DNA from: an uncultured Solirubrobacterales bacterium
GTDB lineage: Bacteria > Actinomycetota > Thermoleophilia > Solirubrobacterales > 70-9
Reading direction: 5' to 3'
Assembly (NCBI GenBank): GCA_963818205.1
Contig: CAWFRG010000001.1
Span: 9,597 to 73,596, forward strand
Length of the DNA: 64,000 nt
Below are positions 7,829 to 53,763 of the stretch, piece by piece. Position 1 is the first letter of the stretch; every line of letters begins with the position of its first letter. The notes beneath the pieces were generated by a model that was given only the letters and a program-made list of their open reading frames with translations, was not told the DNA's origin and searched no databases. The translations under genes were made by a program, and so were the position numbers.

Positions 7829-7901
7829 AGCGGACGACGGGTCTCGAACCCGCTACCTCGAGCTTGGGAAGCTCGCGCTCTACCAGGTGAGCTACGTCCG
7901 C
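7829..7901 (-). tRNA. tRNA-Gly (anticodon CCC)
   Basis: The reverse complement GCGGACGTAGCTCACCTGGTAGAGCGCGAGCTTCCCAAGCTCGAGGTAGCGGGTTCGAGACCCGTCGTCCGCT folds as a cloverleaf: 7-bp acceptor, D arm GCTC/GAGC, anticodon stem CGAGC/GCTCG with loop TTCCCAA, T arm GCGGG/CCCGT with TTCGAGA loop. CCA is not encoded. Confidence 0.92.
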
Positions 7902-41912: not shown

Positions 41913-44087
41913 GTGGCTCCGGCGCTGGAGCTGTGGGCCTGCCCGGCGACCGCACGGGACGAGCTGATCACCCTCACCGAGGGCGTCCTCCCCCACGAGG
42001 AGCGCGGCCCGCCGGAGCCCATCGAGATCGCCGCCGCTCAGCGGACCGGCGAGACGATCGAGCTGGAGGCGAGCTCGGCCTCGCCCCCGGGTCGCCGCCC
42101 GGATCTCGACCCCGGCGCCCGACCGGGTGCTGATCGAGCTCGAGCCCCTCGAAGGCCGGCCACTCCGCCTCGGCGCGCGCTGGCCGCTGGCCGAGGGAGA
42201 GCGCCTCACCGGCCTCGGGGCGCGGCACGGCCTTCACTTCGACCAGCGCGGCCGCGCAGGTGGCCCTCGGCGCCGACCGGCGCTACACCGGCCCCGACTG
42301 CCCGCCCGAGTTCCTCGAGGACGGGGGGATCCCGCAGGGCGACTACGCCCCGGTGCCCTGGCTGCTCTCCTCGGCGGGGTGGTCCGCCTGGCTCGAGACC
42401 TCGGGGCCCGGAGTCGAGGCCGACCTCGCGCGAGGACCGTGCCTCCCTCTCACTCCGGGTGGCCGCCGGCCCGCTCCGCCTTCACCTCTTCTGCCAACCC
42501 ACCCCGGCGGCCCGCCTGCGGGCCTTCGTCGTGAGACCGGCCGGCCGGCGATCCTGCCCGAGTGGGCCTACGGGCACTGGAAGAGCCGCGACGTCTACGA
42601 GCACCAGGAGGACGTCGAGGACGACTGGCGGGGGTACCGCGACAACGAGCTGCCACTCGACGCGATCGTCATCGACTCTCCGTGGGAGACCCAGTACAAC
42701 ACCTGGCGGTTCAACCCCCACCAGTTCCCCGATGCCCCCGGGCTGGTCCGGGGGATGCGCGACGATGGCGTGCGGACGGTGGTCTGGGTGACGCCCTGGG
42801 TCAACCTCGAGTCGATCGACGGCCAGCGCCCGCCCGACACCGCCTCGGAGAAGCTGCATCGCGAGCCCGCGGAGAACTACGCCGAGGGCGCCGAGGCGGG
42901 CCACTATGTCCGCGCCGCCGACGGCGGGCCCACGTGGGGCGCTGGTGGATGGGGACCGGCTCGATCGTCGACTTCACCTCCGACGGGGCCCGGAAGTGGT
43001 GGCGGGACCTGGCCCGGAACGTGTTCGAGCTCGGGGTCGAGGGGGTCAAGGCGGACGACGGCGAGGGCTACTACTTTCCGCCGGACTTCGCTGCTCGCCG
43101 ACGGCCGCAATGGCGCTCGAGTTCGCCTGGGAGTACGGGCGGCTCTACCGAGAGACCACCCAGAGAGGCCCTCGACGAGGTCCACGGCGACGGCCGGGGG
43201 GTTGTCTTCGGGCGCTCGGGCTGGTCCGGCCAGCAGGCGGTGGGGATGCTCTGGGGCGGAGACCAGGCCTCCGACTTCTGGTCGATGCGGGCTCTGGTCG
43301 CCTCCCTGCTGACCGCCGCCGCCAGCGGCTTCTCCAACCTCTCGCACGACGTCGGCGGCTACCTGGGGCGCGCGGCTCGCCGAGCGCTGCGAGCCCGAGC
43401 TGCTGGTTCGCTGGGCCCAGCTCGGGGCGCTGTCGCCGCTGATGCAGGCTCACGGCCGCTTCCAGCAGGAGGCCTGGACCTACGACCAGCGCGGTGCTCG
43501 ACCTCTACCGGGAGGCCGTCCTCCTGCACGAGCGGCTGGTCCCCTACATCCGGGCGGCGGCGGCGACCGCCCGGCGCAGCGGGCTGCCGATCATGCGGCC
43601 GCTCTGCCTCGCCGATCCCGGCGACCCGGAAGGCTGGGCGATCGCCGACTGCTTTCTCTTCGGGCCGGCCCTCTGGGTAGCGCCGGTGCTCGACGAGGGG
43701 GCGGTGGAACGGCGCACCTACCTGCCGCGGGGGGACTGGATCTGCTGGTGGAGCGGCGAGCGGCTCGAGGGCGGCCGCTGGATCGAGGCGGAGGCGCCGC
43801 TCGAGCGGATCCCGCTCTGGGTGCGAGCCGGCTCGATCGTCGTCACCTACCCGGAATCCGAGATCGCCCGCGGGCTCGGCGAGGACGACCCGCTCAGGCC
43901 CTGGAAGCGACGCTCTGGGGCGAGCCCCGGCTCGGCCACACCGCCGCCCGGCTCGCCGACGGAAGCCGGATCAGTTGGCGTCCGCGGCATCGTTTCAGCC
44001 ACTCCGGCGATGGAACGGTGGGTCAGTTGGAGGGGCGGCGACTGGTCCGCCGAGCCCGAGCGCCGGGTCGCCTTCGAGAGGCGCTGA
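41913..44087 (+). pseudogene. glycoside hydrolase family 31 (alpha-glucosidase/xylosidase-like) with at least six frame changes
   Basis: Recognisable pieces lie in three frames: PEWAYGHWKSRDVYEHQEDVEDDWRGYRDNELPLDAIVIDSPWETQYNTWRFN, VWVTPWVN, FTSDGARKWWRDL...GVEGVKADDGEG, VVFGRSGWSGQQAVGMLWGGDQASDFWSMRALV...SHDVGGY, LLHERLVPYIRAAA...LPRGDWICWWSGE. Confidence 0.7.
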
Positions 44088-44765
44088 GCCGGGCGCGGTC
44101 CTTCTCCTGCTCGGCACGCTCTGCGCGAGCGGCGGCTTCCTGGCGGGCTTGTTCGGCGGCCTCCAGCCGCTCCTGCGCCTTCGCGGCCTGCTTGGCCGCC
44201 CGCCGCGCCTCTCGGGCGCGATCGAGAGACTTTCCACCGACCGCTCGAGGCGCGGCCAGGTGCCGGTCTCCTCCTGGCGGCGCCAGAAGGCGACGAAGCG
44301 GTCGGAGAGCAGCTGGCGCCGCGCCTCCAGGTAGACGGCGAGCACGTCGAGCCCGCGATAGGCGGTCCGGTGGGGCGACTGGGCGGCGAGGCGCGGATCG
44401 AGGTCGGGGGTCTCCCCCGCCTTCTTCCGGACAACCTGGGCGTCGGCTCGCTGCAGCTCCTTCAGGTGCCGGCGGACGCGAGGGAGCATCACGTCGCAGT
44501 CGTGGATCTCCCCGAGGATGTCCTGGAGGTCCCGGGCCCGGCGGCGGGCGGTGTCGGCCGGACGGCCGAAGCAGAACCCCGTGACCTCGAGCACGTAGCG
44601 CAACCGCTTGGCGGCGATCCGCATGTCGTGCTGGTCCTTGGTCCGGCCCTCCAAGGCCTTGGGGGCGAAGGAGAGCATCTCGTCGAGCCGCACCTGGATG
44701 ATCCGGGCGGCGTTCTCACCGAGCGCCCGGCTCGGGTCGAGCTTCTTCACCGGGCGCGCCTTCAC
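43995..44765 (-). CDS. CHAD domain protein (second half-domain); the C-terminus is probably frameshifted
   Basis: DQHDMRIAAKRLRYVLEVTGFCFG...DLQDILGEIHDCDV. After about 44215 the printed frame turns Pro/Arg-rich, whereas the neighbouring frame reads ARRAAKQAAKAQERLEAAEQARQEAAARAERAEQEKDRAR. Confidence 0.7.
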   Translation of the reverse strand: MKARPVKKLDPSRALGENAARIIQVRLDEMLSFAPKALEGRTKDQHDMRIAAKRLRYVLEVTGFCFGRPADTARRRARDLQDILGEIHDCDVMLPRVRRHLKELQRADAQVVRKKAGETPDLDPRLAAQSPHRTAYRGLDVLAVYLEARRQLLSDRFVAFWRRQEETGTWPRLERSVESLSIAPERRGGRPSRPRRRRSGWRPPNKPARKPPLAQSVPSRRRTAPGSAPLEGDPALGLGGPVAAPPTDPPFHRRSG

Positions 44766-45247
44766 ACCCTCTCCTCCCGCGCTGCGGCGACCAGCTCGTT
44801 GAGGCTCTCGCGGATCGCGGTCAGGTTCTGCTCCTCGACCAGCGGCGCGAGCGCCAGATTCGCCTCCGCCTGCTCCTCGCGGAGGCGCTCGATCAAGGAG
44901 GAGATCCCGCGCCGGTCCGGCGCCGCCATCTGGTCGTTGAAGCCGTGCATCGCGGAGATCGCCACGTCTCGGTCGCGGCGCTCGCCGAGGCCATCGGCCA
45001 GCCGTTTGACCTCACCCAGCGCCCGCGCGTAGGGCTTCCGGGGGAAGCACGGCTCGAACACCTCGAGGGCGGCGCGGAGGCGCCTGGTGGCAACCCGCAT
45101 GTCGTGGACGCGCTCGATATCGCCGGTGTCGAGCACGCCGCGAGCGTGCGCCGTGAGCTCGCCGGAGCGGACCGAGATGATCTTTGCGGCCGCCTCGGCG
45201 TAGCTGTCGTCGGCGGAGAGATCGTTGATCGGCTTCGGCTTCGCCAT
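44762..45247 (-). CDS. CHAD domain protein (first half-domain)
   Basis: ERVHDMRVATRRLRAALEVFEPCF...LGERRDRDV. The stop overlaps the next start (GTGA at 44762-44765). Confidence 0.7.
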   Translation of the reverse strand: MAKPKPINDLSADDSYAEAAAKIISVRSGELTAHARGVLDTGDIERVHDMRVATRRLRAALEVFEPCFPRKPYARALGEVKRLADGLGERRDRDVAISAMHGFNDQMAAPDRRGISSLIERLREEQAEANLALAPLVEEQNLTAIRESLNELVAAAREERV

Positions 45248-45305
45248 CGGCCGTGAACCCTAACGGGCGGAGTTCCGGCTTAGCTAGGATCGGGCCGAGC
45301 CCGGG

Positions 45306-46295
45306 ATGAGCTCACCTTCCACACTCGCGGTCGAGGCCTCAGGCCTCGAGAAGTCGTTCGGCGACACCCTCGCCGTCGACGGCATCGATCTCGCCGTTCG
45401 GCGCGGCTCCGTCTACGGCGTCCTCGGCCCGAACGGCGCCGGGAAGACGACGACGATCCGGATGCTCGCGACCCTGCTGCGCCCCGACGCAGGCACTGCG
45501 CGGGTGCTCGGCTACGACATCGTCGAGGAGGCCGACGAGGTACGGGGCGCAGTCAGCCTCACCGGTCAGCTCGCCTCTGTCGACGAGGAACTGACCGGGC
45601 GCGAGAACCTGGTCCTGATCGCGCGCCTGCTGGGCCTGCAGCGGGCCCCGGCCAAGGAGCGTGCGACGGAGCTGCTCGAGGCCTTCGGCCTCGCCGAGGC
45701 GGCGGGCCGGCTGGTTAAGAACTACTCCGGTGGGATGCGCCGCCGGCTCGACATCGCCGCCAGCATCGTCGTCACCCCCGAGCTGATGTTCCTCGACGAG
45801 CCGACGACCGGGCTCGACCCGCGCTCGCGCAACCAGGTCTGGGGCATCATCCGGGCGCTCGTCGCCGAGGGAACGACGATCCTGCTCTGCACCCAGTACC
45901 TCGACGAGGCCGACCAGCTCGCCGATGGGATCGCCGTGATCGACCATGGCAAGGTGATCGCGGAGGGAACACCGGCCCAGCTCAAGGCCTCGGTCGGCTC
46001 CGGGGCCCTCCACGTGCGGCTGCTCGATCCCGACCAGCGGCCCGAGGCCGAGCGCGTCCTCGAGCGCGAGCTGGACAGCATCTACCTGGAGCCCGATCCG
46101 GCGGCGCTCTCGGCTCAGTGCGCCGACTCCGATCGGGCCGCCGAGGCGATCGCCGCTCTCGCTCGATCCGGGATCACGGTCGCCGGCTTCTCCCTCGGCC
46201 AGCCGAGTCTCGACGAGGTCTTCCTCGCCCTCACCGGGCACCCGGCCGAGGAGGAGACGCCGGAGGAAGCTGTCGACGAGGAGCGGGCCGCATGA
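45306..46295 (+). CDS. daunorubicin-resistance-type (DrrA-like) ABC transporter ATP-binding protein
   Basis: [38 protein letters not shown], plus a C-terminal regulatory extension. Confidence 0.9.
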
Positions 46296-47146
46296 GTACG
46301 CCCCCTACCACCCGACCGCTCGCCGAGTCCGCCGCCGAGGAGGAGGCACTGCGCAAGGCGCTGTCCTCCGCCCCTCGCCCGCCGCGGGCGAGCGCCGCTT
46401 CGGCGGCGCTGACCTTTGGCTGGCGCGGAATGCTGAAGGTCAAGCACGTCCCCGAGCAGCTCGTCGACGTCACGATCACGCCGGTGCTGTTCGTGGTGAT
46501 GTTCACCTATATCTTCGGCGGCGCGATCGCCGGGTCGACGGGCGACTACCTGGACTACATCCTCCCCGGAATCCTGGTGATGTCGGTCCTGTTCACGACC
46601 GTGTACTCGGGCGTTGCGCTGAACACGGACCTGACCAAGGGTGTCGTCGACCGCTTTCGCTCGCTGCCGATCTGGCGGCCGGCGCCACTGGTCGGATCCC
46701 TGCTCGGCGACAGCGTCCGCTACCTGGTCGGCGGAACCGTGATCATCGTCCTCGGTGTGGTCCTGGGCTTCCGCCCGGACGCCGGGGTCCCCGGGGTGAT
46801 CGCGGCGCTGGCGCTGGTGGTCGTCTTCGCCTTCGGCCTCTCCTGGGTCTTCATGACCATGGGCCTCCTCCTGCGTTCACCAAACGCCGTGATGAACGCC
46901 GGCTTCATGAGCATCTTCCCGCTCACCTTCCTCAGCAATGTGTTCGTCGAGCCGGACACCCTGCCAAGCGCGCTCGAGGCATTCGTGAACGTCAATCCGG
47001 TCTCCGTCCTCGCAACCGCGTCGCGTGGACTGATGCAGGGAGGCGTGGAGGCCGGAGACATCGGCATCGTCCTCGCCACGGCCGCTGGACTGACCGCGGT
47101 CTTCGCGCCCCTCACCACCCACCTCTACCGCACCAGAAGCGCCTAG
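46292..47146 (+). CDS. ABC-2 type (DrrB-like) transporter permease
   Basis: ATGA overlap with the ATPase gene. Six TM segments; [36 protein letters not shown]. Confidence 0.85.
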
Positions 47147-47166
47147 GCGAGGATCAGTCGGAGCCG

Positions 47167-48078
47167 CTAGGCCGCTAGCGCCTTCGACGGCGAGCCGTTG
47201 GCGCTGCCGTTGTTGAGCAGGGTGAGGATGATCCCCTCGCGGAGGCCGCCCTTGCCGATCTGCAGGGGCCGGCCGAGGAGCTGCGAGAACTTCTCCAGCA
47301 GCAAGACCCCGGCGGGCAGCAGCTTCACCCGGCGGGAGTCGAGCTCGAAGCGCTTCGCCACCTCCGATATCTCGGCGCTGGAGAGGACCCTGACCGCCCG
47401 CTCGAGCGTCTCGTACTCGAGCACCGCGCCGACCAGTGTCCGCAGCGAGGTGGCGCTGCCGCCGACCGCCACCGCCTGGTCGGCCGGCTCCAGCTCGACC
47501 CCGTCGAAGAAATCAGAGATGTGGTCGCGCAGGTTGCGGATCTCGGCGGCGGAGGGTGGGTCGCTCTCCAGGTGATCTTCGGTGAGCAGACCGGAGCCGA
47601 TCTTGAAGGAGTGCACCTTGGAGACGCCCCCGGCGACGGTCCCGAAGATCGCCTCGGATGAGCCGCCGCCGACGTCGACCACCGCAACCGTGCCCTCGAC
47701 CGGGTGGCCCAGCGACTTGGTGGCGCCGATGAAAGCGAGCCTTCCCTCCTCCTCTTCGCTGAGGACGTCGACCCGGACTCCGGCCGCCTCCTCGATCTCC
47801 CGGACAACCTTGGCGCGGTTCTTCGACTCGCGGATCGCCGCCGTCGCCACCGCCTTGATCACCTCGGCGCCCATCTCCTCCGCGAGGCGAACCTGGGTGG
47901 TCACCGCCTCGGCGACCTCGGCGACCTTCTCGGCGGTGATCGACCCGTCCTTGCGCGCGTCCTTGCCGATCCGGGTGTACGCACGCTGCTCCATCACCTT
48001 GCGGAGCTGGCCCTCCTGTGGCTCGGCAACCAAGAGGCGAGTGGTGTTGGAGCCGATATCGATCGCCCCGCAGAGCAC
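47167..48078 (-). CDS. Ppx/GppA family phosphatase (exopolyphosphatase / pppGpp phosphohydrolase), short form
   Basis: AIDIGSNTTRLLVAE...VVDVGGGSSE...GKGGLREG: ASKHA-fold N-terminal domains only (303 aa). Confidence 0.85.
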   Translation of the reverse strand: MLCGAIDIGSNTTRLLVAEPQEGQLRKVMEQRAYTRIGKDARKDGSITAEKVAEVAEAVTTQVRLAEEMGAEVIKAVATAAIRESKNRAKVVREIEEAAGVRVDVLSEEEEGRLAFIGATKSLGHPVEGTVAVVDVGGGSSEAIFGTVAGGVSKVHSFKIGSGLLTEDHLESDPPSAAEIRNLRDHISDFFDGVELEPADQAVAVGGSATSLRTLVGAVLEYETLERAVRVLSSAEISEVAKRFELDSRRVKLLPAGVLLLEKFSQLLGRPLQIGKGGLREGIILTLLNNGSANGSPSKALAA

Positions 48079-48157: not shown

Positions 48158-48541
48158 CTATAGCTCAATCCCCAACTGATGCGTCCGCTTCAGGTTGTCC
48201 TCGAGGCCGAACGCGGACGTCAGCCGCCCGTCGCGGACCTCGAAAATGTAGATCTCGTCGACGTTCTCGAAGCGGCGGCCCGTCGGCTCGACCCCGCGCC
48301 ACTCGCCTCGATGAGTGCCCGAGCAGCGGAAGTGGGCCGCGACCTTGTCGCCCTCGGCCACCAGCTCGACGACCTCCATGCGGAAGTCGGGGAAGGCATC
48401 GCGAAAGGGGCCGATCCACCGCCGTGCGGTGGCGGCGAACTCGTCGTCGGCAAGCCCGTCGATCGGCCTCGGGTCCCGGGCATTCACGACCTCCTCGATC
48501 AGGCGCCGGATCAGGGCCTTGTTCTCGTCCGGGGTGCTCAC
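48158..48541 (-). CDS. SnoaL-like / ester cyclase family protein
   Basis: 127 aa: [15 protein letters not shown]...[32 protein letters not shown]...[22 protein letters not shown]. Confidence 0.8.
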
Positions 48542-49377
48542 CCCGAGTCAAGGGGGGCGCCGATCAGGATCAGACGGCGGTTGAGCGCCCCCAGCCCGTA
48601 CTCGGCCAGCTCGCCCGGCTCGACCCCGAGCGCCGCGGAGATGTCCCGGTCGCTTGGGGAGAGCGTCTCGGCCGCGGCCGGCAGCAGGTCGAGCAGGCGC
48701 CCCCGCACCACCTCGCCCATCGCCGGATCCTCGGCCACCGCCTCCCGGAGGAACCAGGTGCCGTAGGCGATGTGCCGCTGCTCGTCAGCGGCGATCAGAC
48801 CGTAGCCCTCGGCGAAGCCCGGGAGCAGCTCCCGCTCCCGCAGCAGGCCGAGCAGGAAATGGGAGGTGACGATCCCCAGGGTCCCCTCCAGCAGCATGTG
48901 GTAGATCGTCACGAAGTCGACCTTCGCCTCCCGGTTGGCCGGGTCGGCGCGCAGACGGTCGTGGGCCTCCACCAGTCCCTCGTCGAAGAGCTTCCGGAAC
49001 GGCGCCCCGAGCTGCTCGCGGGCTCGGCCGACGTGATCGGCGATCGCCGCCGGGTCGGCAACGACCTCGTTCTGAAAGCGGGCATAGAACTGCATGTGGC
49101 GGACCTCGTCGACCAGCTGGGTGGAGAGGAAGCTGCCCTCCTCCTCATCGTCCTGGGCGAGGACCAGCCCGCAGAACTGGGTCGAGATCCGCTCCTCGGC
49201 CACCATCAAAGCGCTGAGCGCGAACTGAAGGAGCTCCCTATCGGAGAGGTCGAGGGAGGGCCACTGATCGACGTCGCGCGAGAGATCGACGTCCTGGGCG
49301 GCCCAATGAGCGTGCTCCCAATCGAGGTAGAGCTGCTGCGGGTCCTTGAGCGCGACTGTCTGCGAGGCGGCGCTCAC
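48538..49377 (-). CDS. ferritin-like di-metal carboxylate protein, ribonucleotide reductase R2-like
   Basis: About 279 aa from GTG 49377 (GTGA overlap with the arsM stop). Two ExxH motifs ([11 protein letters not shown] and [12 protein letters not shown]), each with an upstream carboxylate ([16 protein letters not shown]). Confidence 0.7.
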
Positions 49378-50168
49378 GCGGCGACCCGGGCGCGGACGAT
49401 CGCCGAGCCCGCGTGCTCGTGCACGCGATGGGTCTCCTCGATCTCGATCGCCTCGAATCCGGCACGCCCAAGCTCGCGCCTGAAGCTCTCCTCGGTCAGG
49501 GCGCCGGCGATGCAACCGGTCCACTGCTCCACGTCTCCGCGCGTCGCCTCGTCCATCTCGGGGTCGGCAACGACGTCTGTCACGGCGAAGCGCCCGCCGG
49601 GTCGCAGGACCCGCGCCGCCTCGCGGAAGACCGCGGCCTTGTCGGCCGAGAGGTTGATCACGCAGTTGGAGATGATCACGTCGACCGAGTCGTCGGGCAG
49701 CGGCACCGCCTCGATCGTTCCCTTCAGGAACTCGACGTTCTCGACCCCGGCCTCGCGCTGGTTGGCCCGGGCCAGCTCGAGCATCTCGTCGGTCATGTCG
49801 AGGCCATAGGCCTTGCCGCCCGGCCCGACCCGCCGCGCAGAGAGCAGTACATCTATGCCACCGCCCGAGCCGAGGTCGAGCACCGTCTCACCGTCGCCAA
49901 GCTCGGCGACCGCGGTCGGGTTGCCGCAGCCGAGCGAGGCGAGCTGGGCGGCGCCTGGGAGCTCACCGCGCTCCCCCTCGGAGTAGAGCTCGGCGCCGAA
50001 GTCCTTGAACCCCTGCTCGATTCCAATCGGTTCAGTGGGCCCGCAGCCGCAGGAGCCCGCGCCGCCGCAGGACGCCTCGCCGCCCGCGGCCGCACTTCGC
50101 GCCGCCTCCGCGTAGCGCTCGCGTACGGTCTCCCGAATCTCGTCCTTGCTCTTCAGTTGCTCAGCCAT
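49374..50168 (-). CDS. arsM: arsenite S-adenosylmethionine methyltransferase
   Basis: Cys-rich N-terminus [20 protein letters not shown] motif [26 protein letters not shown]. Confidence 0.85.
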
Positions 50169-50509
50169 CCGCTCATTTCCTCCAATGCCTCGGGGTTGAC
50201 GTAGTAGTAGGCCCAGAGGCCCCGGCGCTCGGAGCCGACGATGCCGGCGTTGCGGAGAACCTTGAGGTGGTGTGAGACCGTCGGCTGGGAGAGGTCGAAG
50301 AGCGGGACGAGCTCGCAGACGCAGACCTTGCCGGCGTGCTTTCTTAGTACGTCGACGAGCTGCATCCGGATCGGGTCGCCGAGCGCCTTCGCGATCGCGC
50401 CCATCCGCTCGGCCGCCTCTCGCTCGATATCGGGATAGACAACCGGCTCGCAGCAGGGCTCACCGACCGGGCGCTTCTGCTTCGGCGCGAGTTGCAGATC
50501 GACAGCCAT
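50153..50509 (-). CDS. arsR: ArsR/SmtB family metalloregulator
   Basis: ALGDPIRMQLVDVLRKHAGKVCVCELVPLFDLSQPTVSHHLKVLRNAGIV; the CVC metal(loid) site is present. Confidence 0.85.
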   Translation of the reverse strand: MAVDLQLAPKQKRPVGEPCCEPVVYPDIEREAAERMGAIAKALGDPIRMQLVDVLRKHAGKVCVCELVPLFDLSQPTVSHHLKVLRNAGIVGSERRGLWAYYYVNPEALEEMSGWLSN

Positions 50510-50522
50510 CAATTTGAGTCTA

Positions 50523-50535
50523 TCGATTGAATCGA
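50523..50535. promoter_or_regulatory. candidate ArsR operator palindrome in the arsR/arsC divergent spacer
   Basis: Perfect inverted repeat TCGATT-G-AATCGA centred in the 76-nt spacer (50510-50585). Confidence 0.35.
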
Positions 50536-50585
50536 GCCATGTCAATGGATACTCTCGCGTCACAAAGCAGCCCAGGAGGCGCACA

Positions 50586-51230
50586 ATGAGCGAGGACTAC
50601 GAGTCGATAGCCGATCACCGCCGGGAGCAGGCAATCTCGGAAATGGTCGACCAATTCCAGGGGATCTGGCCCCGAGAGACGATCGACCGGTTCCTGCAGG
50701 AGTCCGAGCAGGCGCTCAGTGAGGAGGGCGGCGGCCTCAGCTTCCTCCCATTGAGGGCGCCCAGCTTCGCCCGCGAGCGGCTGATGGCCCTCGCGCAGGT
50801 CGAGGAGCAGATCCCGAAGGCTCAGCCCGAGGTCCTCTTCGTCTGCGTTCGGAACGCGGGCCGGTCGCAGATGGCGGCGGCCCTCACCGAGCAAATCTCG
50901 CAAGGAAAGGTCTCGGTGCGATCCGCCGGCTCCCTCCCGGGCGATCAGATCCATCCGGTTGTTGCCGAGGCGATGGCCGAGCTCGGCCTCGATCTGCAGG
51001 AGAGCTTCCCGAAGCCGCTCAGCGACGAGGTCGTGCGAGCCGCGGACGTGGTGATAACGATGGGTTGCGGAGACGCTTGTCCCCTCTACCCCGGCAAGCA
51101 CTACGAGGACTGGGTGATCGACGACCCGGCCGGCCAGCCCCTCGCTGTGGTTCGCGAGATCCGCAATCAGATCGCCGGCAGGGTCGTTGCCCTGGTCGCC
51201 GAGCTCTCACCCGAGCCGGCCGCGACCTGA
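50586..51230 (+). CDS. arsC: arsenate reductase, LMW-PTP (thioredoxin/mycoredoxin-coupled) type, with an ~80-aa N-terminal helical extension
   Basis: VLFVCVRNAGRSQMAAAL P-loop, GSLPGDQIHP, VITMGCGDACP. RBS AGGAGG upstream of ATG 50586. Confidence 0.85.
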   Translation: MSEDYESIADHRREQAISEMVDQFQGIWPRETIDRFLQESEQALSEEGGGLSFLPLRAPSFARERLMALAQVEEQIPKAQPEVLFVCVRNAGRSQMAAALTEQISQGKVSVRSAGSLPGDQIHPVVAEAMAELGLDLQESFPKPLSDEVVRAADVVITMGCGDACPLYPGKHYEDWVIDDPAGQPLAVVREIRNQIAGRVVALVAELSPEPAAT

Positions 51231-51524: not shown

Positions 51525-52457
51525 GTGCTGACCAACCCGCGCCTCGCCTCGCGTCACGCGAGCGGCCTCAGCGAGGTCCTCGGTACCTCGGGGCTGCGCC
51601 CGATCCTCCACGGCCCCGGTGAGATCCGGGCCGGAACCTCCGAGGATGACCGGGTGCTCGAGGGCCTGCTCGGCTACGCCGCCGAGACCGGCGCCGAGCG
51701 GGTCGTCTACCACGCCGCCAACCACCCGGACGAGCCGGCGAGCGAGGACAAGCTCCTGGCCGAGACCCGCTCCCTCGCTCGGCTCGCCAGCCGTGCCGAG
51801 AGCCTCGGGATCATCATCGCGCTCGAGAACCTCGCCCCGGTCTTCCCTGGGCCCGAGGCGCTCTCGTTCAAGCCGCTGCTCCTGCGGACGATGGCGAAGC
51901 GGATCAGCTCCCCGTCCGTGGGCCTCTGCCTCGATATCGGCCACGCCAACGTCGTCGCCGGCCTCCACGGCAGCGACCCGATCGAGCTGATCGAGCCCGC
52001 GCTCGACCGGACGGTGCTCTTCCATCTCCACGACAACCTCGGCGCGCGCCGCGGCTACGACGAGGCGCCCGAGATCGACCCGCTCCGGCTCGACCTCCAC
52101 CTGCCGCCGGGGCGCGGCACGGTCCCCTGGGACCGCCTGGCGCCGCTGCTCGCCCGCCGGCAGGCGCCGCTGCTGCTCGAGGTGCACCCGCCGCACCGGC
52201 CCTCGCCGGCACACCTGTTCGAGGCGGCGGTCAGGGTCCTGCGACTGCCAGGCCGCTCGCTGTCGGAGCGGAGGCGCAGCCGTAGCGACTTAAGCGGGGC
52301 GGCCGCCTGCAGCCGCGACCTGATGTTTGCCGGCTCCCTGCCCCCGCTTAGCTCGCCCGCTGGCGCTAGTTGCGGAGCGCCGCCCGGAGCTTCTTATTGC
52401 GCTCGGACCGCTTCGCCCGCTGCGCCTTCCGCGCCTCGCGGGCGACTGCGCTGGTGA
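51525..52457 (+). CDS. sugar phosphate isomerase/epimerase (xylose isomerase-like TIM barrel) family protein; 5' end unresolved
   Basis: ERVVYHAANHP, IIIALENL, LCLDIGHANV, LFHLHDN motifs. The same frame is open back to 51300 and already encodes RLGLNIPYEWWPAAPVLKQIEAAGFSWVQV but has no ATG/GTG/TTG. The 3' 150 nt are Pro/Ala/Ser-rich and overlap the convergent gene. Confidence 0.6.
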   Translation: MLTNPRLASRHASGLSEVLGTSGLRPILHGPGEIRAGTSEDDRVLEGLLGYAAETGAERVVYHAANHPDEPASEDKLLAETRSLARLASRAESLGIIIALENLAPVFPGPEALSFKPLLLRTMAKRISSPSVGLCLDIGHANVVAGLHGSDPIELIEPALDRTVLFHLHDNLGARRGYDEAPEIDPLRLDLHLPPGRGTVPWDRLAPLLARRQAPLLLEVHPPHRPSPAHLFEAAVRVLRLPGRSLSERRRSRSDLSGAAACSRDLMFAGSLPPLSSPAGASCGAPPGASYCARTASPAAPSAPRGRLRW

Positions 52458-53763
52458 CGCCGGCCGCGCGGGTGAGGGAACCCTGCCCTGCGCCTGGTCG
52501 TCTGCGCCGACCGATCCCGTGGTCACTGCCGATCCCGTTGATGCTGAAGGTCGCCGAGGACCCCAACCCGCTCAGGTCGAAGCTGACCATCACCGGCTGG
52601 CCTTCGAAGAGCTTGCTCTGGTCGATCCCGGGCCCGACTGCGAGTGGATTCAGGTCGCGCAACGACTCCCGGGTGTCATCGGCAGAGAGGATCATCTCGC
52701 TGTCGTTGGGGCAGCGGCGCTGGATTACCGCCTCGAGAGTGCCCCCCGCCACCGCGCCGGCCGGGGTGAGGGAGCTCTGTGTGAGCATCGCGGTCGGGGT
52801 CATCGGAGGCTGGGGGAAGATCTGGCTGGGGCCGCCATCGCACTCCAGTGGCGGGTCTGTCGGCGCCGCTGGGCCCGTCTGGCGACTGATTGATCTGAAC
52901 CGTGGTTGTGACCAGCTGGCCCACCTTGGGCACGGTGGTGTCAGAGGCGGAGGGCACGCTGACGAGGACGGATGAGCCGACGGTCGAGACCGTGTAGGCG
53001 TATCCCGGATCCGCGAGGTCCGGCGCATCACAGTTGCCCGGCGGGGTGCCGTCGGTGTCGGCGCAGTAGGTGACGGTCCCGGAGAAGCCCGCCGAGGTCG
53101 CCGAGCCCTGCGCGGTGCGCTGGCCGTTCTCCGCGTAGGTGCCGTTTCTGAGCGGCCTCACCGGGACGGTGAGGTCGGTACCGACCGTCGGCAGCGTCTC
53201 TGGAGCGGCGGTGTGGATCGACCTCAGGTTGCCGAGGGACGCGATCGTGTAGCTGACCGCGACCGGGTTCACGTGCACCACCACCCCGGCGAGCGTATCC
53301 ACCTGGTTCTTCTTCTTTTTCTTCTTCTTCTTCCTGTTCTCGTCTCCGCCGCCCCCCGGCCCGCCTCCGGAGGAGACCGTGGGCGCTGCGACCGCCGAGG
53401 ATGCTGGGGCGGGCGCCGGACCTCCTCCGCCACCTCCCCCCAGCGGCGCCGGGGCGGAGGGCTCCTCGGTGGTGGGCGCCTGGACAACCGGGGGCGCCGA
53501 GGCGATGATCCCCGAGAGGTTGGGACTGATCGCGGTGCCGATCACGACCCCGAAGCCGAGCGCGATCGCCGCGAAGGTGGTCGCCGTCTGCAGCGGTACC
53601 GGGAGCACGAAGCGAGCTTTCCCTGCCTCCTCGGCCCCGGCACCGAGGTCAGGTAGGGGAGCGCGATCGGCGGGCCCACCCGGGTGCCGCATTCGATGCA
53701 GTAGCGCTGATCGGTGGCAAGTGGGGCCCCGCAGTTCGAACAGGGCCCTCGCAGGTTGTTCAT
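52366..53763 (-). pseudogene. N-terminal zinc-ribbon, single-TM protein with a large ectodomain; two frame changes (about 53655 and about 52890)
   Basis: CSNCGAPLATDQRYCIECGTRV (ORF 53542..53763), then AEEAGKARFVLPVPLQTATTFAAIALGFGVVIG plus a Gly/Pro/Lys linker and VHVNPVAVSYTIASLG...TVTYCADTDGTPPGNC (ORF 52676..53692), then PLECDGGPSQIF...VMVSFDLSGLGSSATFSING (ORF 52366..53031). Confidence 0.6.
53309..53332 (-). repeat. (AAG)n lysine-codon microsatellite inside the zinc-ribbon gene
   Basis: AAG AAG AAG AAG AAA AAG AAG AAG encodes K8. An AT-rich trinucleotide run in a roughly 70% GC context. Confidence 0.9.

Follow-up and report, generated by a model that had tools for sequence, protein, structure and literature searches.

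The 64,000-nucleotide stretch of DNA from an uncultured Solirubrobacterales bacterium analyzed here (contig CAWFRG010000001.1, hereafter the window) contains an arsenic resistance (ars) operon, in which the genes of the regulator ArsR and the arsenite methyltransferase ArsM are followed by a gene for a protein of 279 amino acids (aa) that resembles the small (R2) subunit of ribonucleotide reductase (RNR), and by a SnoaL-like gene. Judged by sequence comparison and a structural model, the 279-aa protein is a relative of the R2lox proteins and not an RNR subunit, and it belongs to a clade with a strong genomic link to ars genes. Our favored reading is that of an ArsR-controlled operon with an R2lox-like, O2-activating oxidase, which would act on a trivalent arsenical, most plausibly methylarsenite (MAs(III)), and we assign a probability of about 0.4 to this reading as a whole. 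That the function of the clade is related to arsenic appears very probable to us; the narrower proposal of an oxidation of methylarsenite to methylarsenate (MAs(V)) is tentative and may well turn out to be wrong.

Identification of the R2-like protein as a relative of R2lox

The R2-like protein clearly passes the Pfam threshold of the RNR small chain (PF00268, 62.5 bits, cut-off 33.6), and the public family name in IMG is "ribonucleoside-diphosphate reductase beta chain." With NrdB/NrdF, including the Mn/Fe class Ic R2c proteins, it shares this superfamily, the pattern of metal ligands and a Tyr at the radical position of class Ia enzymes, but the similarity does not go beyond E 5e-7, and the NCBIfam NrdB equivalog models reach only 20-26 bits with cut-offs of 309-310. 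In a sequence search of the PDB the R2lox entries are found on top, with 7qbp as best match (E 3.5e-20) and others down to about 1e-14, and the R2/NrdB entries of RNR follow from 5e-7. The AlphaFold2 model of the protein (predicted local distance difference test, pLDDT, 71.9; predicted template modeling score, pTM, 0.73) points in the same direction, as ranks 1-34 of the Foldseek comparison with the PDB are all R2lox, with template modeling (TM) scores of 0.72-0.79 and 22-26% identity, and NrdB structures appear from rank 35 onward.

One genome per GTDB species was scanned, which yielded 452 relatives; the best 80 of these 452 (56-90% identity to the window protein), nearly all from metagenome-assembled genomes of Solirubrobacterales/Thermoleophilia, were analyzed and are referred to as the clade. 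A six-frame search for the motif NLCxE[IV] of the RNR alpha subunit gave no match in the window or in the 80 loci, each taken with flanks of 6 kb, and there is no RNR alpha gene cluster among the recurrent neighbors. The ranking in the PDB and Foldseek searches, the low NrdB scores and the missing alpha motif together argue for an R2lox relative rather than an RNR subunit. This is in line with the earlier note on this DNA, which had considered a role in ribonucleotide reduction as unlikely and had named a regular proximity of the clade to class I RNR large subunits as one of the findings that would speak against an arsenic function; such a proximity is not seen in any of the 80 loci.

The protein falls short of R2lox proper on two tests, as its scores stay below the cut-offs of the family and the radical position is not occupied by Phe. 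In detail, the best NCBIfam R2lox model scores 110 bits (NF006200, cut-off 194) and the others 71-103 bits (cut-offs 274-346). Weak Pfam matches were obtained to the AurF and the phenol/methane hydroxylase families. A flavin-dependent fold, either an NADPH-FMN reductase or an FAD monooxygenase, was looked for as well, and the Pfam and NCBIfam matches comprise only the ferritin-like R2, AurF and phenol hydroxylase families. Among characterized proteins, BioE, an oxygenase of the ferritin-like type that cleaves fatty acids, was considered as a possible relative; R2lox and R2-like proteins are not mentioned in the BioE paper.

Association of the clade with ars genes

Neighboring genes were counted by tblastn with the window proteins and other ars proteins. 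In 70 of the 80 loci arsR is located upstream on the same strand. The gene directly upstream of the R2-like gene is arsM in 44 loci (five more have arsM with a gap), a gene of the ArsI/CadI family in 12 (NCBIfam ArsI/CadI, 147 bits with a cut-off of 116), arsR itself in 7 and arsC in 1-2. In the wider islands, arsC is present in 59 loci, an aquaporin gene in 30, GAPDH-ArsJ in 11-12, a metallophosphoesterase gene in 10 and Acr3 in 8. An exact 4-nt overlap of stop and start codon is present at 37 of 47 junctions between arsM and the R2-like gene, at 8 of 12 junctions with arsI and at both junctions with arsC, and as this overlap recurs with three different upstream genes it is no accident. The coupling to arsM described in the earlier note thus applies to most arsM-containing loci, but the partner is not arsM alone, since a gene of the ArsI/CadI type (12 loci) or arsR (7-8 loci) can take its place.

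In a neighbor-joining tree the arsM architecture is found on both sides of the deepest split of the clade, and the arsR-only and unlinked cases are scattered. As the genes 3' of the R2-like gene vary widely across loci in addition, the ars link has been kept through many rearrangements. Genes similar to ArsH, ArsV, ArsP or ArsK are not among the recurrent neighbors of the clade loci, and a flavoprotein partner of the ArsH or ArsV type is thus not seen there. One branch with three loci assigned to Candidatus Solibacter and Dormibacterota bins (L067, L068, and L073) has the active-site signature of the clade described below, no ars link and a Val or Ala in place of Cys69. This branch may result from horizontal transfer with loss of context or from mis-binning.

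A control for this association was obtained from the sister clade. When 1.8 billion representative proteins were searched exhaustively with HMMER, the next full-length relatives had no more than 41% identity and scores below the R2lox cut-offs. Four of them were aligned, and a scan of metagenome contigs with this alignment recovered 80 loci, 77 of them with 33-47% identity to the window protein. The remaining three, with 55-56% identity, are part of the ars clade, and arsR, arsC or arsJ adjoins in each case. Sufficient flank, at least 800 bp upstream, was available for 50 sister-clade loci, and none of these 50 has an ars gene upstream of the R2lox-like gene; in one case (L116) an arsR is located about 1.8 kb downstream on the other strand. 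The neighbors are instead TetR regulators, flavin reductases and housekeeping genes. Using one shared criterion, an ars gene is found directly upstream in 69 of the 78 clade loci with enough flank versus 0 of 50 in the sister clade (Fisher's exact test, p = 1e-26, uncorrected for phylogeny). In the clade this neighbor is arsM in about 50 cases, an ArsI/CadI lyase gene in 12 and only arsR in 8. The neighborhood statistics, which had been suggested as a check in the earlier note, consequently show a non-random ars linkage of the clade. The sister-clade genes themselves (L081-L160) often have a flavin reductase gene or a divergently oriented regulator of the TetR family as neighbor and look like a large uncharacterized radiation around R2lox.

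Active site of the ars clade

The two groups that differ in genomic context also differ in the active site. The predicted metal ligands of the R2-like protein, E61, E91, H94, E164, E199 and H202 (E/ExxH/E/ExxH), are invariant in the 80 clade members, and so is Tyr98, four residues beyond His94 at the position of the class Ia radical Tyr. Both ExxH motifs, the paired carboxylates and the Tyr after the first His had already been recognized from the single sequence and turn out to be a property of the whole clade. Tyr159 aligns with the cross-linking Tyr of R2lox, and Ile64 is found at the position of the Val to which this Tyr is linked. The combination of Ile64 and Tyr98 is present in 80 of 80 clade genomes and in all three clade loci from the metagenomes, whereas 77 of 77 outgroup sequences have the classical R2lox pattern of Val and Phe at these positions; the Phe is also present in 7qbp. 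Further clade-specific traits in the alignment are an Ala for the Gly before the first ligand, Gly168 at a channel position (Ala in the outgroup) and a shorter N-terminus. Residues 69-82 form an invariant acidic loop, which is modeled with low confidence by AlphaFold2.

A comparison with the structurally characterized R2lox proteins (M. tuberculosis Rv0233, 3EE4; Geobacillus kaustophilus R2loxI, 4HR0; Saccharopolyspora erythraea, 7QBP) indicates that the predicted ferritin-like R2 fold, the six metal ligands, the cross-linking Tyr, the similar size and the lack of an RNR partner are common to both groups. Differences are the low identity, far under the NCBIfam R2lox cut-offs, the three exchanges around the metal site (Ile for Val, Tyr for Phe, Ala for Gly), the lack of about 25-40 N-terminal residues together with the additional acidic loop, and the location in ars operons in contrast to the TetR regulators or housekeeping genes beside the R2lox-like genes of the sister clade. 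It has been reported that an R2lox V72I variant retains Tyr cross-linking (PMC6060897), and by analogy O2 activation appears plausible for the Ile-containing ars clade.

Cys69, the only Cys of the R2-like protein, was considered as an arsenical-binding residue. It is replaced by Val, Ser, Thr or Ala in 16 of the 80 members irrespective of ars linkage and is therefore not essential; 12 ars-linked members have Val, Ser or Thr and five unlinked members keep the Cys, and this candidate was rejected.

A possible role in the oxidation of methylarsenite

Methylarsenite is the product of ArsM and the substrate of ArsI. It is toxic and also released by other microbes, and methylarsenate is far less toxic. 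We propose that As(III) would release ArsR from the promoter, so that the R2-like protein is made together with ArsM. The protein would then assemble a Mn/Fe or Fe/Fe center, activate O2 and act on a trivalent arsenical, for which an oxygen-atom transfer to methylarsenite seems most plausible. The resulting methylarsenate would correspond to the product of the flavoproteins ArsH and ArsV, which fill this role in other bacteria. Methylarsenite is favored as substrate because ArsM and ArsI, both recurrent enzymatic partners, handle it, and its oxidation fits all three architectures. A role similar to ArsH or ArsV also fits to the absence of such genes among the recurrent neighbors.

The likeness to these known methylarsenite oxidases would be restricted to the O2-dependent reaction and the ArsR-regulated operon: ArsH is a flavoprotein of the NADPH-FMN type and ArsV a monooxygenase that uses flavin, whereas no flavin- or nucleotide-binding domain is present in the ars-clade protein, a predicted di-metal carboxylate protein. 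With ArsI, the Fe(II)-dependent C-As lyase whose gene directly precedes the R2-like gene in the 12 loci mentioned above, it may have in common that a non-heme metal enzyme encoded in an ars operon uses O2 and methylarsenite. ArsI has a VOC/glyoxalase fold with mononuclear Fe and a Cys pair, and the ars-clade protein a ferritin-like fold with a dinuclear site and no Cys pair.

Several points weigh against this proposal. With Cys69 as a single and dispensable Cys, the thiol-based binding of arsenicals that is typical of ars enzymes is absent. R2lox is without known catalytic turnover and binds fatty acids (PMC9314684), and no reductase partner is encoded nearby. In eight operons arsR is combined with the R2-like gene in the absence of both arsM and arsI, and hence a methylated substrate is not required. 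The members come almost exclusively from one order, the Solirubrobacterales, so that part of the linkage reflects shared ancestry, and the few members outside this order (Dormibacterota and Solibacter bins) are not ars-linked. Furthermore, the structural model is only of moderate confidence (pLDDT 72), and the chemistry is deduced from genomic context.

An alternative is an indirect protection or a replacement of a target, in which the protein would leave arsenic itself unchanged. It would be an arsenic-insensitive substitute for a sensitive di-iron enzyme, or would handle O2 or peroxide or buffer metals and thereby ease oxidative or metal stress caused by arsenic. A precedent is folE in ars operons, which confers resistance by a raised output of the targeted pathway (PMC9144182), and the absence of Cys pairs for arsenical binding, the operons with only arsR and the R2-like gene, and the lack of a demonstrated turnover substrate of R2lox would all be compatible with such a function. 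We regard it as rather unlikely, as the gene is translationally coupled to both enzymes that make or cleave methylarsenite, the clade-specific changes at the metal site suggest a change of substrate and not a generic role, and no housekeeping paralogue that might be replaced was identified.

An oxidation of inorganic arsenite is still less likely in our view. The As(V) formed would be tolerated or exported, for example as 1-arseno-3-phosphoglycerate via GAPDH-ArsJ, and indeed As(III) is the compound common to all three architectures, GAPDH-ArsJ pairs are part of 11-12 of the 80 islands, and one arsR-arsM-SnoaL locus lies beside Rieske and molybdopterin genes of the Aio type. Such an activity would result in a futile cycle with ArsC, which reduces As(V) to As(III) and whose gene adjoins in 59 of the 80 loci, in the window as a divergent, co-regulated gene; the oxidation of methylarsenite avoids this cycle. 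In addition, As(V) is no less problematic where it is imported by Pst, and pst genes are next door.

Improbable to a similar degree is a different chemistry on organoarsenicals, such as an oxidative C-As cleavage by hydroxylation of the methyl group to As(III) and formaldehyde, the degradation of aromatic arsenicals or the oxidation of di- and trimethyl products. C-H hydroxylation and heteroatom oxygenation are common among ferritin-like di-iron enzymes, to which the weak matches to AurF and phenol/methane hydroxylases would fit, and the ArsI/CadI lyase co-occurs in 12 loci. But a demethylase right behind ArsM would reverse the work of ArsM, and a second lyase would be redundant where ArsI is present. 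We also see little chance for a more far-reaching variant, a new arsenic-transforming metalloenzyme in which a Mn/Fe or Fe/Fe center and a redox-active Tyr at the former radical position of RNR would support a chemistry not known from any ars enzyme, such as the cleavage or formation of C-As bonds on a bound ligand by radicals or a high-valent metal. Since R2lox binds long-chain fatty acids, even a step toward arsenic-containing lipids is conceivable in place of a plain MAs(III) oxidation.

It is very unlikely that the association is a case of genomic hitch-hiking, in which the gene was captured once beside an ars operon in an ancestor of the Solirubrobacterales and kept by synteny with no arsenic function. 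The near confinement of the clade to one order would be expected, and the downstream ppx, CHAD and ABC genes are likewise syntenic in many loci with no obvious role in arsenic metabolism. The upstream ars link is, however, kept while the downstream neighbors vary widely, the 4-nt overlap is found with three different ars genes, and the tree indicates repeated origins of the arsI-type and arsR-only architectures. Finally, a true class I RNR small subunit, as in the current automatic annotation, has the PF00268 score, the Tyr at the radical position and the IMG name on its side and can practically be dismissed in view of the NrdB scores far below threshold, the closer similarity to R2lox in sequence and fold, the missing alpha motif, the short protein and the location of the gene inside ars operons.

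Organization of the operon and the arsR/arsC control region

The four genes of the operon are located head to tail on the minus strand between positions 48158 and 50509 of the window, and all coordinates and overlaps of this arrangement as first described (16, 4, and 4 nt) hold (Table 1). In detail, the arsR stop codon is at 50155-50153 and arsM starts 16 nt within the end of arsR. A GTGA at 49377-49374 is common to the TGA stop of arsM and the GTG start of the R2-like gene, and a second GTGA at 48541-48538 to the stop of the latter and the start of the SnoaL-like gene. Both GTG starts are supported by the lengths of the homologues (275-279 aa for the R2-like and 127 aa for the SnoaL-like relatives).

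Table 1. Features of the ars operon and its control region in the window.
Feature	Position	Strand	Remarks
SnoaL-like (NTF2-fold) protein	48158..48541	-	GTG start; 127 aa
R2lox-like di-metal carboxylate protein (predicted), ars-specific clade	48538..49377	-	GTG start, TGA stop; 279 aa
arsM	49374..50168	-	ATG start at 50168; As(III) S-adenosylmethionine methyltransferase, 264 aa
arsR	50153..50509	-	ATG start at 50509; ArsR/SmtB metalloregulator, 118 aa
arsR/arsC divergent control region	50510..50585		76-bp spacer with promoter and palindrome on the arsR strand
arsC	50586..51230	+	Arsenate reductase of the low-molecular-weight protein tyrosine phosphatase type, N-terminal phosphatase-like domain; divergent from arsR

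The family assignments of arsM, arsR and the divergent arsC are firm. ArsR matches Pfam HTH_5 (56.6 bits) and NCBIfam HTH_metalloreg (NF033788, 92.9 bits, cut-off 55), and Cys19-Cys20 together with Cys63/Cys65 are candidate As(III)-binding residues. ArsM is recognized by the arsenite methyltransferase model NF008823 (309 bits, cut-off 263) and has Cys residues in LGCGNP (C81), SNCVINL (C169) and GCIAGA (C219) as well as an additional N-terminal Cys cluster. ArsC matches Pfam LMWPc (74 bits) and PF21234, and the NCBIfam arsenate reductase models at E 3e-24, which is under their cut-offs; an AGGAGG is located ahead of the ATG at 50586. No arsenite pump is found beside the operon in the window, and thus methylation is the only detoxification step encoded at this operon.

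On the arsR strand the spacer between arsR and arsC contains a sigma-70-like promoter with TTGACA as -35 element (50545-50540) and TAGACT as -10 element (50522-50517) at a distance of 17 nt. The palindrome that had been noticed in this spacer was confirmed as TCGATTGAATCGA at 50523-50535, a 13-bp sequence with arms of 6 nt and one central base that lies between the -35 and the -10 element and occurs only once in the window (0.09 copies expected by chance). As the arsR ATG follows 7 nt beyond the -10 element, the transcript is probably leaderless. When the 60-nt sequences preceding arsR in about 65 related loci were aligned, the TTGACA, a palindromic ATTCAAT(C/T)GAT core and a TATAC-like -10 element were seen to recur in most loci with constant spacing to the arsR ATG, in the arrangement TTGACA-N5-(T/A)C(T/G/A)ATTCAAT(C/T)GATAT(A/C). 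The palindrome is presumably a conserved ArsR operator.

The SnoaL-like gene as an independent addition

The SnoaL-like protein is a member of the fold and not an equivalog, as it passes the Pfam model SnoaL PF07366 (74 bits, cut-off 28.4) and stays far below the cut-off of NCBIfam SnoaL_meth_ester (30.5 bits, cut-off 200). The PDB sequence matches are IdmH, SnoL and AclR (E 3e-11 to 9e-9). It has the NTF2-like/SnoaL Pfam domain and a similar size in common with the polyketide cyclases and hydroxylases of this type (SnoaL, SnoaL2/SnoL, AclR and IdmH), but there are no polyketide genes nearby, the NCBIfam cyclase models are far below their cut-offs, and the 127-aa subclade is found at the end of arsR-arsM operons.

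The R2-like and the SnoaL-like gene had been treated as one unit in the earlier note, and this part could not be upheld. The two genes are adjacent in only one of the 80 species-representative loci (L002), and in another one (L024) they are about 4 kb apart. Among the contexts of eight SnoaL-like orthologues, three are arsR-arsM-SnoaL operons that do not contain the R2-like gene (82-88% identity), two are arsR-arsM-R2-SnoaL operons or an R2-SnoaL pair on a contig that starts at the R2-like gene (74-83%), and three are unrelated (70-79%); in five of eight contexts the gene is thus the last, 3' one of an arsR-arsM(-R2) operon, with an overall identity range of 74-92%. An obligate pair was therefore rejected, and the SnoaL-like gene is an accessory gene of a narrow lineage and an independent add-on behind arsM. 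The independent recruitment of two accessory genes behind arsM in this lineage hints at a need for further handling of the ArsM product. In one of the loci that lack the R2-like gene (L169, metagenome contig Ga0672931_0000084, 1808-6384), arsR-arsM-SnoaL is followed by an arsR on the opposite strand and by genes for a Rieske and a molybdopterin subunit, which resemble the AioBA-type arsenite oxidase.

Neighboring genes and further observations

An intrinsic terminator was looked for 3' of the SnoaL-like gene and none was found, so that read-through into ppx (exopolyphosphatase, 47167-48078) is possible; this gene is located on the same strand and starts 79 bp beyond the SnoaL-like gene. It is followed by two CHAD-domain genes and an ABC transporter (43494-48078), and these, together with the region 51525-52457, represent conserved phosphate/polyphosphate surroundings. 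In the relatives pstA, pstB, phoU and ppk are also found nearby, and in about 29 of the 80 loci ppx comes after the R2-like gene. This neighborhood may be mere synteny or may reflect a link between the handling of arsenate and phosphate.

In about 10 of the 80 islands a YfcE-like metallophosphoesterase of about 240 aa with several Cys pairs is encoded between the aquaporin gene or arsC and arsR (L016, L025, L029, L047, L057, L058, L071, L072, L074, L075, and L171); to our knowledge it does not correspond to any named ars gene. Three metagenome contigs (L161-L163) contain an open reading frame (ORF) of 46-47 aa with no Pfam match about 30 bp past the arsC stop (1948-2091 in L161), which is located between arsC and an AP_endonuc_2 gene (xylose isomerase-like TIM barrel). 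Elsewhere in the window, a long ORF on the minus strand (52676-53692) has a Gly-, Pro- and Ala-rich product of low complexity that includes nine consecutive lysines (KKKKKKKKK), and a zinc-ribbon-like ORF adjoins it (53542-53763). The only Rfam or ARAGORN match in the 64 kb is a tRNA-Gly (CCC) on the minus strand (7829-7901).

Implications for arsenic metabolism and the R2lox family

Within the library that could be searched, R2lox and arsenic were found together in nothing beyond one irrelevant materials-chemistry paper, and a search on ferritin-like, di-iron or ribonucleotide reductase proteins in ars clusters, or on new MAs(III) oxidases, did not reveal any report of this clade. The paper on AsgeneDB, a curated collection of 59 families of arsenic genes, contains no mention of a ribonucleotide reductase, ferritin or SnoaL family (PMC9623898). 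The coupling of a di-metal protein to ArsM, which the earlier note had called undescribed, accordingly has no counterpart in the literature found, and the data suggest an ars operon with a previously unrecognized class of accessory enzyme.

If the proposed function is true, the ars repertoire would for the first time include a ferritin-like di-metal enzyme, and this enzyme would belong to a widespread family with nearly all carriers among soil-metagenome Solirubrobacterales. Surveys of arsM in soil may then misjudge the fate of toxic MAs(III). Furthermore, thousands of database entries with the name "ribonucleoside-diphosphate reductase beta chain" probably carry a wrong annotation. For R2lox itself, no physiological function has been established since its discovery, as a review of the structures from 2022 still notes (PMC9314684). 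An ars-linked sister clade with defined changes in the active site would offer a concrete substrate class for the R2lox family and a first biological context for these orphan R2lox relatives.

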